Shown piece by piece: positions 1,612-5,976 of a DNA stretch of 6,714 nt (position 1 is the first letter of the stretch; each line of letters opens with the position of its first letter). Source of the stretch: a virus (taxonomy: Duplodnaviria > Heunggongvirae > Uroviricota > Caudoviricetes). The stretch is from positions 1-6,714 of IMG/VR virus record IMGVR_UViG_2693429557_000009, one strand, 5' to 3'. The position numbers and the translations under genes are program-made. The notes below the pieces were generated by a model, which had not been told where the DNA came from, searched no databases, and saw nothing but the letters and a program-made list of their open reading frames with translations.

Positions 1612-1613
1612 GG

Positions 1614-1653
1614 TTGATTTTTCCGGAATCTGTGGTAAATTCGTCATAACGAT
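1614..1653 (+). promoter_or_regulatory. Late promoter PR' with extended -10 and promoter-proximal sigma70 pause element (likely Q-utilisation region)
   Basis: TTGATT (1614-1619), 16 bp spacer, TGg-TAAATT extended -10 (1633-1641), then AACGATGGG (1648-1656), a -10-like repeat in the initial transcribed region like the lambda PR' pause inducer as I recall it; lies 3 bp after the Q stop. Confidence 0.6.
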
Positions 1654-1690
1654 GGGCGTTTTATGCCTGACGTTAGAAGAGTTTCTACAA

Positions 1691-1716
1691 CCCGCCGCCG
1701 AGCGGGTTTTTTATGA
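1691..1716 (+). terminator. Intrinsic terminator (tR'-like) about 45-70 nt downstream of the predicted PR' start
   Basis: GC-rich hairpin cccgc-cgccga-gcggg followed by TTTTTT (1707-1712). Confidence 0.6.
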
Positions 1717-1832
1717 CTGAAATCGCGTCAGTACAGTAAACGCGCTGGTGGCGGTGAATACCTGTCTTTCAGCTTGCTGGCTTTTTCGACAAGAGTTATT
1801 GGTGTGTCACGTTAACCGGAAAAGGAAAAGAC

Positions 1833-2030
1833 ATGCTAAAACAGCAGGATATGACAGAAACCGCCAGAGTGGTGTTTAATGAATTAAGCGTTACCGAACC
1901 GGCGACAGTCGGGGAGATAGCGCAGAATACTTACCTTTCACGCGAACGCTGCCAGTTAATACTGACCCAGCTGGTTATGGCGGGTCTGGCAGACTATCAG
2001 TTCGGTTGTTACAGACGCCTTCCGCAGTGA
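1833..2030 (+). CDS. Small (65 aa) putative winged-helix DNA-binding protein, FaeA/PapI-like by pattern
   Basis: ATG 1833 preceded by AAAGGAAAAG; segment FNELSVTEPATVGEIAQNTYLSRERCQLILTQLVMAGL has the helix-turn-helix spacing and conserved EIA...L..L...G pattern of small winged-helix regulators (my recollection of PapI/FaeA); its own intrinsic terminator overlaps the stop codon. Confidence 0.55.
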   Translation: MLKQQDMTETARVVFNELSVTEPATVGEIAQNTYLSRERCQLILTQLVMAGLADYQFGCYRRLPQ

Positions 2031-2040
2031 AGGCTTTTTT
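2017..2040 (+). terminator. Intrinsic terminator overlapping the stop codon of the small winged-helix ORF
   Basis: Perfect 6 bp stem gccttc/gaaggc with 6 nt loop, followed by TTTTTTATTT (2035-2044). Confidence 0.6.
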
Positions 2041-2057
2041 ATTTGTGGTAAATGGGC

Positions 2058-2088
2058 GGCTGGTGGGTGTTAGGGGCACCCACCAGCC
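2058..2088. repeat. Perfect 12 bp inverted repeat (ggctggtgggtg / cacccaccagcc) with 7 nt spacer, no downstream T tract
   Basis: Read directly from the sequence; lies between the small ORF terminator and the methyltransferase start; candidate operator or RNA structure. Confidence 0.5.
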
Positions 2089-2129
2089 ATCTGCTCATGC
2101 GTTGGGTTCACAAGCAAACCTCAGGCCCA

Positions 2130-2148
2130 CTGCTTTGCGCAAAAGCAG
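2130..2148. promoter_or_regulatory. Near-palindrome ctgcTTTGCGCAAAAgcag (perfect 10 bp core TTTGCGCAAA) about 35 bp upstream of the methyltransferase ATG; candidate operator
   Basis: Dyad symmetry read directly; typical size and position for a dimeric regulator binding site. Function is inference. Confidence 0.3.
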
Positions 2149-2180
2149 AATGAGCCTATCAGAGACAGGCTTAATGATCC

Positions 2181-3362: not shown

Positions 3363-3439
3363 CCGCCATTAGCTCATCAGGAAAGAGCGCCAGCCTTCGA
3401 AGCTGGCTGCGCGGGGTTCAAGTCCCCGATGGCGGTCCA
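3363..3439 (+). tRNA. argN: tRNA-Arg (anticodon UCG, reads CGA/CGG)
   Basis: Acceptor stem ccgccat/atggcgg, anticodon stem ccagc/gctgg with loop ctTCGaa, T arm cggggttcaagtccccg, encoded CCA. Confidence 0.88.
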
Positions 3440-3452
3440 TTATCTGCATCAT

Positions 3453-3529
3453 GCGTTGTTAGCTCAGCCGGACAGAGCAATTGCCTTCTAAGCAATCGGT
3501 CACTGGTTCGAATCCAGTACAACGCGCCA
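3453..3529 (+). tRNA. argO: tRNA-Arg (anticodon UCU, reads AGA/AGG)
   Basis: Acceptor stem gcgttgt/acaacgc, anticodon stem attgc/gcaat with loop ctTCTaa, T arm actggttcgaatccagt, encoded CCA. Confidence 0.88.
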
Positions 3530-3543
3530 CACTTATTTTCCCT

Positions 3544-3569
3544 GGCTCGCTTTTGCGGGCCTTTTTTTT
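3544..3569 (+). terminator. Intrinsic terminator closing the tRNA cluster
   Basis: Hairpin ggctcgc-tttt-gcgggcc (one mismatch) followed by TTTTTTTT (3562-3569). Confidence 0.55.
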
Positions 3570-3687
3570 AAATGTCTCACAATTCAGACGGTTGACAGTT
3601 GTCTGTTTTGCGGGGAGTTTGTTAAAAGAAACTGGCATGGTGAATCCCCCTGAGCGGAGGGGCGACTGGTGACGGTATAATCTCTGA

Positions 3688-3809
3688 TTATCAAAACGAG
3701 AATGACGCGGGTTTAGTGGCACCGGGCTGAACTCACCGGGAGGCACCCGGCACCATGTGCATGATGATACAGATACGCGGCTTTAGCCCCTCTCCGGAGG
3801 GGTTTTCTT
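3688..3809 (+). ncRNA. Candidate small RNA (about 120 nt) running from a consensus -10 to an intrinsic terminator in the ORF-free region
   Basis: Perfect TATAAT at 3676-3681 (weak -35), no credible ORF downstream, then terminator cccctc-tccg-gagggg plus TTTTCTT (3787-3809). Expression is unverified. Confidence 0.25.
3787..3809 (+). terminator. Intrinsic terminator in the tRNA to nanS-p intergenic region
   Basis: Perfect 6 bp GC-rich stem with 4 nt loop followed by TTTTCTT. Confidence 0.5.
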
Positions 3810-3814
3810 GTGGG

Positions 3815-3844
3815 CAAAAAAAGCCCGCGCTGGGAGACGCGGGC
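3815..3844 (-). terminator. Possible minus-strand intrinsic terminator (convergent with 3787-3809)
   Basis: 7 bp stem gcccgcg/cgcgggc (3823-3844) preceded on the + strand by a 7 A run (3816-3822), which reads as hairpin plus U tract on the minus strand. Confidence 0.3.
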
Positions 3845-4037
3845 GGCAAGGAATAAACAATAAAACGTGAAGTAATATTTCAGCTGGCGAATAATACCCC
3901 ATAGTAATCACTCTGCGCAACTGCGCGGTCTTTTTCGAATTGCGGGCTGTCGTCTCTCTTCTGCCATTGTCCTGTAACTTCCGGACTTCAGCCCGCTCCT
4001 TATTTTACTCACAATATTATCCCGGCCGGGAGGATTC

Positions 4038-5891
4038 ATGGCATTTAAACACTATGACGTGGTCAGGGCGGCATCGCCGTCAGACCTTGCGAAACGACTG
4101 ACACAAAAACTGAAGGAGGGCTGGCAGCCGTTTGGTAGTCCGGTGGCCATAACCCCTTATACCCTGATGCAGGCGATTGCAGCAGAAGGTGATGTGGTCG
4201 TCAGTGGTGCAACTGAGCCGGAGTGGTACTACGTCATCGTACTGGCCGGGCAATCCAATGCCATGGCTTACGGTGAAGGTCTTCCGCTTCCGGATTCATA
4301 CGATGCGCCCCATCCGCGCATTAAGCAACTGGCCCGTCGTAACACAGTGACTCCCGGTGGTGAAGTATGCGTATTTAACGACATCATTCCTGCTGACCAT
4401 TGTCTGCATGATGTTCAGGATATGAGTACGATTAACCATCCCCGGGCTGACCTGAGCAAAGGGCAGTACGGCTGTGTCGGACAGGGCTTACATATTGCCA
4501 AAAAACTGCTTCCGTATATCCCTAATAATGCGGGGATCCTGCTGGTACCATGCTGTTGTGGTGGTTCGGCATTCACCCAGGGCACGGAGGGGACATTCAG
4601 CGAGTCCACGGGGGCCAGTCAGGATTCGGCTCGCTGGGGAGTGGGTAAGCCGTTATATCAGGATCTGCTTTTCCGCACGAAGGCAGCATTGCAGAAAAAC
4701 CCGAAAAACGTTTTGCTGGCGATATGCTGGATGCAGGGGGAATTCGATATGACGAATGCCAGTTACGCCCAGCAGCCAGCAGCATTTCTTGCAATGGTAC
4801 AGCAGTTCCGTGCTGACCTTGCCGGGCTGGCGGCGCAGTGTCACGGTGGAAGTCCGGCATCAGTCCCCTGGATTTGTGGCGACACGACATACGCGTGGAA
4901 ACAAGAACACGGTACGCAATATGAAGTGGTATATGGTGCATATAAAGGTAAAGAATCCCAGCAGATTTATTTTGTTCCCTTTATGACCGATGGTAGCGGA
5001 GTTAATACACCGACAAACAACCCGTCAGAAGATCCTGATATTGCCGGGTCTGGTTATTACGGTTCGGCATCCCGAACGAACAAAAACTGGGTATCATCAA
5101 ATCGCCCGACGCATTTCAGCTCATGGGCGCGTCGTGGCATTATTCCCGATCGTATGGCAACTGCTATTCTGAACGTAGCCGGTCGCACCTTAGCCTTCAT
5201 TAGTGGTAAGGCACCGGAAATCAAACCCTCGCCCGGCGGCGACACGCCATCGGGGCCGTCTGAAGATGCATCCATACGCACAATCTCCCTGTTGCCGACA
5301 GCCGGAGACGCTGCTGCGCAGGGCTGGAGCATTAAGAATGGCGGAGTTCAGTTGTCAGATGGTGTATTTAAGATCACCAAGCAGAGCAATAAAGCCTGGT
5401 CCCTGACGCGCCCGGTGGATGACGCAGTCTCCCTGCTGACACGGGGTGGCAGACTGAGCTGTAAGTTTCGACTGTCAGGCGCACTGACCAACAACCAGTT
5501 CGGTCTGGGAATTTATCTGTATACCGATGTAGCGTTACCTGACGTCGTGGCGATGACCGGGACTGGTAACCCGTTCCTGATGTCGTTCTTCACCCAGACC
5601 ACAGACGGCAAACTGAATCTGATGCATCACAAGAAAGCAGGAAACACAAAGTTGGGCGAGTTCGGGAATTACAGTAACGACTGGCTGACGCTGGAGCTGG
5701 TGTTCACCGCCGGCAGTGCCACGGTTACTCCGAAACTGAATGGAGTGGCTGGCCCGGCATTCCAGGTCATAAAAGACAGTCTGACACTGGGGCTGAATGC
5801 GCTGACGCTGACGGATATTACCAAAAATGCAGCGTATGGCGTTGAGATAGAAAGTCTGGTGCTGGAGATAAATGCACCGGCATCATCATAA
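4038..5891 (+). CDS. nanS-p: Prophage sialate O-acetylesterase of the NanS-p type (9-O-acetyl-N-acetylneuraminate esterase): N-terminal DUF1737-like domain, SGNH/SASA esterase core, C-terminal domain of unknown function
   Basis: 617 aa; strong RBS GGGAGG 6 nt before the ATG; GQSN block (VLAGQSNAMAY, residues 71-74) typical of the SASA/SGNH nucleophile motif; size and position (after the tRNA triad, before holin S) match the esterase gene found downstream of stx in Stx prophages (recalled as 933W L0105/Z1466-like). Confidence 0.82.
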   Translation: MAFKHYDVVRAASPSDLAKRLTQKLKEGWQPFGSPVAITPYTLMQAIAAEGDVVVSGATEPEWYYVIVLAGQSNAMAYGEGLPLPDSYDAPHPRIKQLARRNTVTPGGEVCVFNDIIPADHCLHDVQDMSTINHPRADLSKGQYGCVGQGLHIAKKLLPYIPNNAGILLVPCCCGGSAFTQGTEGTFSESTGASQDSARWGVGKPLYQDLLFRTKAALQKNPKNVLLAICWMQGEFDMTNASYAQQPAAFLAMVQQFRADLAGLAAQCHGGSPASVPWICGDTTYAWKQEHGTQYEVVYGAYKGKESQQIYFVPFMTDGSGVNTPTNNPSEDPDIAGSGYYGSASRTNKNWVSSNRPTHFSSWARRGIIPDRMATAILNVAGRTLAFISGKAPEIKPSPGGDTPSGPSEDASIRTISLLPTAGDAAAQGWSIKNGGVQLSDGVFKITKQSNKAWSLTRPVDDAVSLLTRGGRLSCKFRLSGALTNNQFGLGIYLYTDVALPDVVAMTGTGNPFLMSFFTQTTDGKLNLMHHKKAGNTKLGEFGNYSNDWLTLELVFTAGSATVTPKLNGVAGPAFQVIKDSLTLGLNALTLTDITKNAAYGVEIESLVLEINAPASS

Positions 5892-5976
5892 AAAGTGAGC
5901 CAGCCAAATGGAAGGTATCGTTAAACTCACCGGTAGTGTCAGTGGGTCGTCTGAGATGCCTGCATGAGTTATCAGA

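Follow-up and report, generated by a model that had tools for sequence, protein, structure and literature searches.

A terminator-rich late leader with embedded RNA genes in a toxin-less, Stx-phage-like prophage of Escherichia coli

We analysed a stretch of 6,714 nt of viral DNA, hereafter the window (Caudoviricetes; positions 1 to 6,714 of the IMG/VR record IMGVR_UViG_2693429557_000009). The window is the late-gene control region of a toxin-less lambdoid prophage of Escherichia coli that resembles the Shiga toxin-converting (Stx) phages. It contains the gene of the antiterminator Q, the late promoter PR' and a leader rich in terminator-like hairpins that ends at the gene of the holin S. In our view, this leader is most likely switched by Q and holds two classes of genes: RNA genes that would be autonomous, and protein-coding cargo that would depend on Q.

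Genes and hairpins between Q and the holin gene

The gene order was derived from the list of open reading frames (ORFs) and from scans with Pfam, ARAGORN (tRNAs) and Rfam. We named the six terminator-like hairpins of the + strand T1 to T6, numbered from PR' towards S. The features are:

162–419, + strand: small ORF
419–793, + strand: rusA
790–1611, + strand: antiterminator Q, 273 aa, Q-lambda family with a zinc-finger insert of about 68 aa (PF03589)
1614–1653, + strand: late promoter PR'
1689–1714, + strand: T1, first terminator after PR' (tR')
1833–2030, + strand: ORF65, 65 codons, conserved phage protein (phrog_331)
2017–2040, + strand: T2, second tandem terminator
2041–2185, + strand: structured 5' leader of the methyltransferase gene (from folding)
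2181–3239, + strand: beta-class N6-adenine DNA methyltransferase, M.EcoGII-like by similarity (PF01555)
3242–3270, + strand: sigma-70 promoter of the tRNA cluster (from promoter score)
3280–3529, + strand: tRNA-Ile/Met(CAT), tRNA-Arg(TCG) and tRNA-Arg(TCT) (ARAGORN, Rfam)
3544–3569, + strand: T3, terminator of the tRNA operon
3599–3813, + strand: small RNA (sRNA) gene of the STnc100/PasD family, from promoter to T4 (Rfam RF02076)
3816–3997, minus strand: sRNA gene of the EcOnc08/21/42 type in the AsxR/AgvB slot (from alignment and terminator)
3913–3935, + strand: T5, weak hairpin
4038–5891, + strand: NanS-p-like sialate O-acetylesterase (DUF1737, SASA and DUF6645 domains, Pfam)
5974–6009, + strand: T6, pre-holin terminator
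6042–6257, + strand: holin S, class II (P21-type; PF04971)
6262–6576, + strand: DUF1327 gene

We searched for intrinsic terminators with a strict scan, which required at least six base pairs, at least four G-C pairs, at least five T in eight positions and a hairpin free energy (dG) of −7 or lower. Between the stop codon of Q (1611) and the start of S (6042), six hairpins of the + strand passed these thresholds. Only 0.38 ± 0.64 were expected, and none of 200 dinucleotide shuffles reached six. A looser scan of both strands gave 16 sites, against 6.6 ± 2.6 in shuffles. The strict scan misses the tR' terminators of lambda and of strain Sakai because their loops exceed 8 nt, and our counts are therefore conservative. 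It found a seventh site after the DUF1327 gene, downstream of S (6551–6576).

The six sites match, within 0–3 nt, the hairpins listed in an earlier interpretation made from the DNA letters (the sequence-only reading). In what follows dG refers to the hairpin alone, with the value in its context of about 41 nt in brackets. T1 has its stem at 1689–1708 followed by T6AT (dG −10.6). T2 (2017–2034, T6ATTT, dG −7.5 [−9.6]) overlaps the stop codon of ORF65. T3 is at 3544–3561 (T8, dG −12.6 [−13.8]), and T4 at 3785–3804 (TTCTTGT, dG −14.4) has the lowest context value of the sites (−18.7 kcal/mol). T5 is the weakest (3913–3928, TCTTTTT, dG −8.6 [−9.3], z −1.2); 22 of 200 shuffles folded equally well, which makes it marginal as a terminator. 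T6 has the best z-score (5974–6002, T4ATTG, dG −16.5 [−17.0], z −4.56). The roles of these hairpins differ: T1 and T2 are the tandem tR', T3 ends the tRNA operon, T4 ends STnc100/PasD, T5 is an antisense image, and T6 precedes the holin gene.

All ORFs of the window are intact. With NCBIfam, ORF65, the esterase, the holin and the DUF1327 protein received no specific name. By megablast, 407 phage records matched the window, mostly Stx1- and Stx2-converting phages. Of the 5426 complete E. coli genomes, 564 contain at least 80% of the window, and the match in E. coli 042 (NC_017626, 1415278–1422019) has 96.5% identity.

The late promoter, its antiterminator and the tandem terminators

Q was assigned to PF03589 (Pfam, E 6e-55) and aligned with Q-lambda (PDB 7UBM, chain Q) over residues 1–113 and 182–273 (E 1.5e-40). 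The intervening residues (about 114–181) form an insert of about 68 residues, with motifs similar to the DnaJ zinc finger (CXXCXGXG), that Q-lambda does not have. Copies of Q with 100% identity occur on many long IMG/VR prophage contigs, and the same module of Q, PR' and T1 is carried by isolated phages (vB_EcoS-640R1) and by a Stx2a phage.

PR' lies directly after the stop codon of Q, with the layout TTGATT-16-(TG)G-TAAATT (−35 at 1614–1619, TG at 1633–1634, −10 at 1636–1641). Its score of 10.2 is the second-best intergenic match on the + strand of the window in our position-weight scan. Positions 1634–1656 (GGTAAATTCGTCATAACGATGGG) are the same as those of lambda PR' (GGTAAATTTGACTCAACGATGGG) at 19 of 23 positions, and the string TAAATT-N6-AACGATGGG, i.e., the −10, the 6-nt spacing and the AACGAT-GGG element, is identical to lambda. 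In lambda, AACGAT is the sigma-70-dependent pause signal where Q loads, and transcription begins at its first A. Following lambda, we take the start of PR' to be at 1648 and the pause element to be AACGAT at 1648–1653. From this start to the ATG of S (6042) there are 4394 nt, in agreement with the "about 4.4 kb" given previously. The spacer between −35 and −10, which houses the Q-binding element of lambda, is unrelated in sequence to that of lambda. The homology of Q, the lambda-like PR' and the hairpins together support the module of Q, PR' and tR' with a terminator-rich leader ahead of the lysis genes that the sequence-only reading had proposed.

Transcripts from PR' are predicted to measure about 67 nt if they end at T1, and about 390 nt, including ORF65, if they end at T2. 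In strain Sakai, differential RNA sequencing (dRNA-seq) and Term-seq mapped PR', tR' and the tRNA promoter, as well as the PR' transcript StxS-L of 258 nt, which is processed to 74 nt (PMC7547250). We shifted the Sakai coordinates of that paper by +142 nt; this offset holds because the Term-seq 3' end then coincides with the last T of the T-tract (position 1603 of our Sakai Sp5 locus, L007). The mapped Sakai ends could thus be matched to T1, T2 and the tRNA promoter. T1 agrees at 21 of 24 positions with a hairpin of prophage Sp5 (L007, 1370–1394) that lies at +25 to +49 of StxS-L. T2 is the positional counterpart of the tR' mapped by Term-seq in Sp5, with marginal sequence likeness (22/27, E 0.09). 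T1 and T2 are most plausibly regarded as tR' terminators in tandem. Because the counterpart of T1 is inside the 258-nt StxS-L, a hairpin of the T1 type is read through at some rate without Q. This canonical-looking terminator of Sp5, read through in the lysogen, is not discussed in the main text of the StxS paper. T1 stem variants occur among the related loci. We rejected the RNA from PR' to T1 as a homologue of StxS, since the terminator hairpins alone align with Sp5. ORF65 matches phrog_331 (E 1.4e-37) and shows a weak TrmB-like helix-turn-helix match in Pfam.

Three promoter scores on the + strand stood well above the others, namely 11.5 (3242–3270, the tRNA promoter), 10.7 (1851–1880) and 10.2 (PR'). 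The second is inside ORF65 and is probably fortuitous; PR' and the tRNA promoter are the only high-scoring intergenic promoters of this strand. No promoter scoring at least 8 was found in the same scan upstream of ORF65 (1715–1832), the methyltransferase gene, the esterase gene (3929–4037) or S.

RNA genes, protein cargo and module borders

The tRNA cluster has the best promoter of the window (TTGAAG-17-TATTAT, score 11.5), which ends 10 nt before the first tRNA. This promoter is kept in Sakai Sp5 as TTGCAG-17-TATTAT, where dRNA-seq located a primary start driving the tRNAs (PMC7547250). The tRNAs are equivalent to ileZ-argN-argO (ileZ2/argN2/argO2 in the Sakai annotation). An explanation of the tRNAs by rare codons in the cargo genes was uninformative, with 21–62 rare codons per 1000. 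The operon ends at T3, whose stem (GGCTCGC/GCGGGCC) has a variant in one related locus (GGTTCGC/GCGGACC in L006) with one change per arm. The Stx2a phage Stx2_EH1910 has the order rusA, Q, ORF65, methyltransferase and tRNAs, then stx2AB, followed by STnc100, iraM, nanS-p and the holin gene. Homology between this phage and the window breaks at 3570/3573, directly after T3, where stx2AB is inserted. In the window the site is uninterrupted, between T3 and the STnc100 promoter. As the break falls exactly at the site of stx2AB, the window is a toxin-less relative with an empty toxin slot.

The next gene matches the full length of the STnc100 model (RF02076, model positions 1–206, window 3606–3815) with 148.8 bits, for a gathering score of 47. 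Its promoter, TTGTCT-18-(TG)TAAAAG at 3599–3628, is conserved: in an alignment of eight diverged copies the −35 TTG.C and the −10 TGTTAAAA are invariant. The sequence GCATGGTG at 3635 corresponds to the mapped 5' end of PasD2, a related sRNA of enteropathogenic E. coli (EPEC; table S6 of PMC8550237). The promoter (TTGTCT-18-TGTTAAAAG) and the PasD2 end likely place the start of the RNA at about 3635 (GCAUGGUG...). The start of the Rfam model (3606) falls within the promoter. T4 (3785–3813) is the 3' end of the sRNA according to Rfam, i.e., its own terminator. Copies of STnc100 are transcribed in uninduced EDL933, one of them confirmed by Northern blot (PMC5331693), and PasD is abundant in EPEC without induction (PMC8550237). 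E. coli 042 carries two tandem copies (6195–6385 and 6663–6872 of locus L001) and the window has one (3606–3815). The two copies in the closest chromosomal relatives suggest that recombination between copies led to a deletion, or that these relatives underwent a duplication.

Convergent with STnc100, the minus strand has a strong terminator at 3844–3823 with U7 (dG −16.9) that adjoins the end of STnc100 and runs to 3816. The region aligns closely with prophage PP6 of EPEC E2348/69 (1444789–1445026), where RNA sequencing and RNA interaction by ligation and sequencing (RIL-seq) revealed a 182-nt candidate sRNA associated with Hfq (supplement of PMC8550237). The candidate (E2348C_1409.E2348C_1408.IGR) is homologous to EcOnc08/21/42 of enterohaemorrhagic E. 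coli (EHEC) and has the target motif GGCAAGG (PMC8550237). The complementary seed CCUUGCC is found in the window immediately 5' of the minus-strand terminator, and a promoter-like site (ATGCCA-17-GATAAT, score 9.1) at 4044–4016. Terminator, seed and promoter-like site therefore delimit a minus-strand sRNA gene from about 3997 to 3816.

According to Rfam, the same minus-strand slot is occupied by the anti-sRNA AsxR in Sakai Sp5 and by the anti-sRNA AgvB in a Stx1a phage. The slot and the 5' region are common to these sRNAs, whereas the sRNA of the window has a different 3' seed part. We rejected its identification as AsxR (RF02703) or AgvB (RF02702), as neither covariance model matched positions 3780–4060 at E ≤ 10, and as OmrA/B (25 bits, for a gathering score of 40). 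Read on the opposite strand, an internal hairpin of this sRNA gives T5; the T5 homologues of Sp5 and PPyecE, with their longer stems, look like strong terminators (dG −17.8 and −14.3). Any polymerase that transcribes late from PR' has to pass this convergent gene head-on. The sequence-only reading had included neither the minus-strand terminator nor the STnc100 identity of 3785–3813, the position of T5 inside the minus-strand gene or the unbracketed methyltransferase gene described next.

The methyltransferase matches PF01555 (E 7.9e-42) and is 95% identical to that of phage 1720a-02. The latter is very similar to M.EcoGII, and both M.EcoGI and M.EcoGII are silent in the lysogen (PMC5778455). 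Such close similarity suggests an M.EcoGII-like enzyme, with a predicted non-specific activity. The strict scan found no + strand terminator between 2034 and 3544, and thus none after the stop codon of the gene (3239). Its leader (2041–2185) is highly structured: the minimum free energy (MFE) is −63.4 kcal/mol (z −3.87), none of 200 shuffles was as stable, and a long hairpin spans 2052–2098. This leader could be an additional layer of control on a toxic methyltransferase. In the MFE fold the region of the start codon is base-paired.

Homologues of the esterase are annotated as yjhS or SASA esterase. The homologue of phage phi24B, gp84, is a capsid decoration protein attached through DUF1737 (bioRxiv 10.64898/2026.04.10.717836); a virion protein would, by analogy, make the esterase a true late structural gene. 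Transcripts of nanS-p increased by 1–2.4 log after mitomycin C in 13 of 14 stx2a strains, and the authors had already inferred Q control of nanS-p from its conserved position (PMC10462455). About 25 related loci have an internal deletion of the esterase (4258–5748) that fuses the capsid-binding domain DUF1737 to the last 48 codons or so (from 5749). At the 3' end of the gene (5841–5878), GAUAGAAAGU-CUGGUGCUGGA-GAUAAAUGCA is identical to a RIL-seq target site of the EPEC sRNA PasA in E2348C_1246, although PasA and PasC genes are absent from the window.

T6 lies 33 nt upstream of the start codon of S. Its six sequence variants preserve the stem (97.6% of cells paired, with two of the seven pairs changed on both sides). 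In Stx2_EH1910 the hairpin moves with S and not with the esterase (joint at 5972). Of the loci with this holin, about a third lack a hairpin here. T6 was rejected as the terminator of a PasA/PasC sRNA: in EPEC these are encoded on the other strand, within a spacer of 447 bp, and we found no PasA/PasC homologue in the 150-bp spacer between esterase and holin genes of the window. The holin itself matches PF04971 (E 9e-33) and has a dual-start motif (ATG at 6042 and 6051).

To locate joints between modules, we aligned 89 related loci with the window by BLAST and looked for positions where alignment ends pile up; the counts are descriptive because the loci are not independent. The largest pile-up surrounds T3 (3537–3577, 144 ends), followed by the end of T1 (1711–1714, 69), the tRNA promoter (3240, 68) and the end of T4 (3802–3808, 52). 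The internal esterase deletion that keeps DUF1737 accounts for 37, 25 and 24 ends (at 4037, 4257 and 5749, respectively). Six ends were found at T6 (5972–5994), one at T5 (3907) and one at the start of T1 (1689), where most Stx2a phages begin to match. Most module borders coincide with terminators and promoters. This mosaicism is observed directly, as are the features themselves, their homology and their conservation. The segment with ORF65, T2, the structured leader and the methyltransferase gene (1715–3239) is a single block of 1.5 kb that is gained or lost as a whole, and not two units bracketed by terminators. In the sequence-only reading a terminator bracketed every unit. Terminator-like hairpins do follow ORF65 (T2), the tRNAs (T3), STnc100 (T4) and the esterase gene (T6), but the methyltransferase gene has no 3' terminator before the tRNA promoter.

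We surveyed the leaders of 80 IMG/VR loci whose Q shares at least 95% identity with that of the window. In a first pass the S module was in range in 56 loci, with 14 module orders behind the same PR' and T1 and a distance from Q stop to S of 740–6907 bp (median 2620). When all fetched loci were included in a second pass, we obtained 58 distinct leaders of 739–6906 bp, each with 2–8 terminators on the + strand; their density was 1.09 per kb on the + strand and 0.12 per kb on the minus strand. The leader of the window (4430 bp, six sites) is in the upper part of the range, short of the extreme. That of Stx2_EH1910 measures 6.7 kb, and the region between Q and S of 933W about 5.8 kb (PMC10462455). 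Hence, the leader is not unusually long or terminator-dense, as had been proposed; it is long only relative to lambda (about 0.6 kb).

Proposed mechanism and comparison with known systems

We consider it quite probable that the leader is a Q-controlled switch with autonomous RNA genes and Q-dependent protein cargo. In the lysogen, PR' would fire constitutively, as in lambda and the Stx phages, and RNA polymerase would halt at the tandem T1/T2, leaving short RNAs only. The tRNA operon, STnc100/PasD and the minus-strand sRNA would be made from their own promoters, each up to its own stop (T3, T4 and the minus-strand terminator, respectively). T6 would be the final insulator, directly ahead of the holin gene. 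Jointly, these stops would keep unmodified polymerase, whether from PR' or from internal promoters, off the lysis genes. Upon induction, the antiterminator of the Q-lambda type would load on polymerase paused at the AACGAT of PR', and the modified polymerase would pass every hairpin to transcribe ORF65, the methyltransferase and esterase genes, S and the downstream lysis genes. Termination, antitermination and silence in the lysogen are proposed here from lambda and from the published homologues in Stx phages.

The RNA genes are autonomous in this scheme, and not Q-gated cargo, because they have their own conserved promoters and their homologues are expressed without induction. The earlier suggestion that the whole cargo is Q-gated thus stands in part. 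It agrees with ORF65, methyltransferase and esterase genes without an evident sigma-70 promoter, and with methyltransferase and esterase homologues that are silent in the lysogen or induced by mitomycin C (PMC5778455, PMC10462455). It does not agree with the tRNAs, given their promoter and the start mapped in Sp5, nor with STnc100/PasD, whose promoter is conserved and whose homologues are abundant in uninduced cells. By analogy only, the homologue data and the missing promoters support the Q-dependence of the methyltransferase and esterase genes.

Several points weigh against the Q switch as we describe it. The expression data come from homologues rather than from this prophage. Promoters of the protein genes that are weak or need an activator can escape a simple sigma-70 matrix. 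The Q-binding element is unrecognisable by sequence, with a spacer unlike that of lambda and a Q with a 68-aa insert. T1 may be leaky, to judge from its Sakai counterpart within StxS-L. Increases linked to induction also reflect prophage replication, i.e., copy number, and not Q alone. Finally, according to literature cited in PMC10462455, nanS-p supports growth on Neu5,9Ac2 in uninduced cultures, which needs some expression at a basal level or in a subpopulation.

An alternative that we find rather unlikely is that the leader serves as a platform for RNAs of the lysogen and not only as a barrier: the hairpins would mostly be the 3' ends of lysogeny RNAs, and read-through by Q, antisense to the minus-strand sRNA, would turn the lysogeny sRNA programme off. 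These RNAs may comprise the RNA of about 67 nt from PR' to T1, the tRNA operon, STnc100/PasD and the convergent sRNA in the EcOnc42/AgvB slot. The first of them could be an undescribed Hfq-binding sRNA, similar to StxS, of prophages with a Q of the lambda type, and about 10% of complete E. coli genomes would carry it. If this alternative were true, the shut-off at induction would occur by transcriptional interference or antisense pairing.

Less probable still is that all units between PR' and S are morons bracketed by terminators, with the methyltransferase, the tRNAs and the esterase expressed essentially only by Q read-through. A moron, in the definition of Hendrix and Juhala, is an additional gene, equipped with a promoter and a terminator of its own, whose presence varies between related phages. 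Most units are flanked by terminators, mosaic joints lie at or beside T1, T3, T4, T5 and T6, and the protein genes lack evident promoters, as this view expects. Yet the tRNA promoter is the best of the window and has experimental backing in a homologue, the STnc100/PasD promoter is conserved and the RNA abundant in uninduced cells, and the minus-strand sRNA gene cannot be expressed from PR'. Moreover, the methyltransferase gene lacks its own 3' terminator and is gained or lost together with ORF65 and T2 as one indel block. The view also contradicts itself, since a moron implies its own promoter and not Q-gating. The "classic moron architecture" attributed to all units by the sequence-only reading therefore applies only to the RNA genes, which alone have their own promoter and terminator.

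The least likely explanation is a defective relic that has lost late transcription by Q, where the hairpins matter only as 3' ends of RNA genes and leftovers of recombination: many relatives have deletions (about 25 loci keep the esterase only as a DUF1737 stub), E. coli 042 has a frameshift in YdfR, insertion sequence (IS) elements occur in the same region of Sakai and E2348/69, and integrity is judged on the 6.7 kb visible, but every ORF of the window is intact, many long viral contigs carry a copy of Q with 100% identity, the −10 and the pause element of PR' are intact, and the vB_EcoS-640R1 phages and a Stx2a phage share the module of Q, PR' and T1.

The analysis yields a corrected annotation that assigns the hairpins to their transcription units, with autonomous RNA genes and protein genes that are probably late. 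The map is useful for studies of the gain or loss of stx and other cargo, and of sRNA expression by prophages. It places the empty toxin slot (3570/3573) and a candidate minus-strand sRNA gene of the Hfq-associated type inside the late leader.

The region resembles lambda in its homologous Q, in the promoter directly after Q, in the short terminated leader RNA that is expected, and in the lysis genes being the first essential late genes. The RNA ended at T1 is predicted to measure about 67 nt, whereas the 6S RNA of lambda has 194 nt, and PR' and S are separated by about 0.6 kb in lambda but by 4.4 kb of cargo here. Tandem terminators in the late leader of lambda were described in the 1980s. 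ORF65 and T2 were rejected as homologues of lambda orf-64 and tR', with no protein or DNA similarity.

The window shares with morons the presence/absence polymorphism and the joints at unit borders, and its tRNA operon and two sRNA genes have a promoter and a terminator. It differs in that ORF65, the methyltransferase gene and the esterase gene lack a detectable promoter of their own, and in that the esterase homologue is a virion protein of phi24B and not an add-on for lysogenic conversion. With StxS (PMC7547250) the region has in common the concept of a constitutive PR' transcript that tR' stops in the lysogen, and T1 and T2 have counterparts in Sp5. The RNA bodies, however, share no sequence, and the predicted lengths (about 67 or 390 nt) differ from the 258 nt processed to 74 nt.

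The closest likeness is to the Stx phages (933W, Sakai Sp5, Stx2_EH1910, 1720a-02 and Stx1a phages), which have, at 84–93% nucleotide identity, the same order of Q, PR', terminators, ORF65, methyltransferase, ileZ-argN-argO, toxin slot, STnc100, minus-strand sRNA, nanS-p and P21-type holin. The window differs from them by the absence of stx genes. Most Stx2a phages have another Q and PR', and their homology to the window starts exactly at T1 (1689); in Sakai Sp5, ORF65 and the greater part of the methyltransferase gene have been lost. Q-dependent late expression of stx and nanS-p has been published (PMC7547250, PMC10462455), and Q read-through of a cargo-laden leader before the lysis genes is the textbook reason why release of Shiga toxin follows prophage induction. 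The window is a toxin-less copy of this arrangement, common in E. coli and of little weight as a discovery: the arrangement is already known in kind, and each embedded RNA gene is from a described family.

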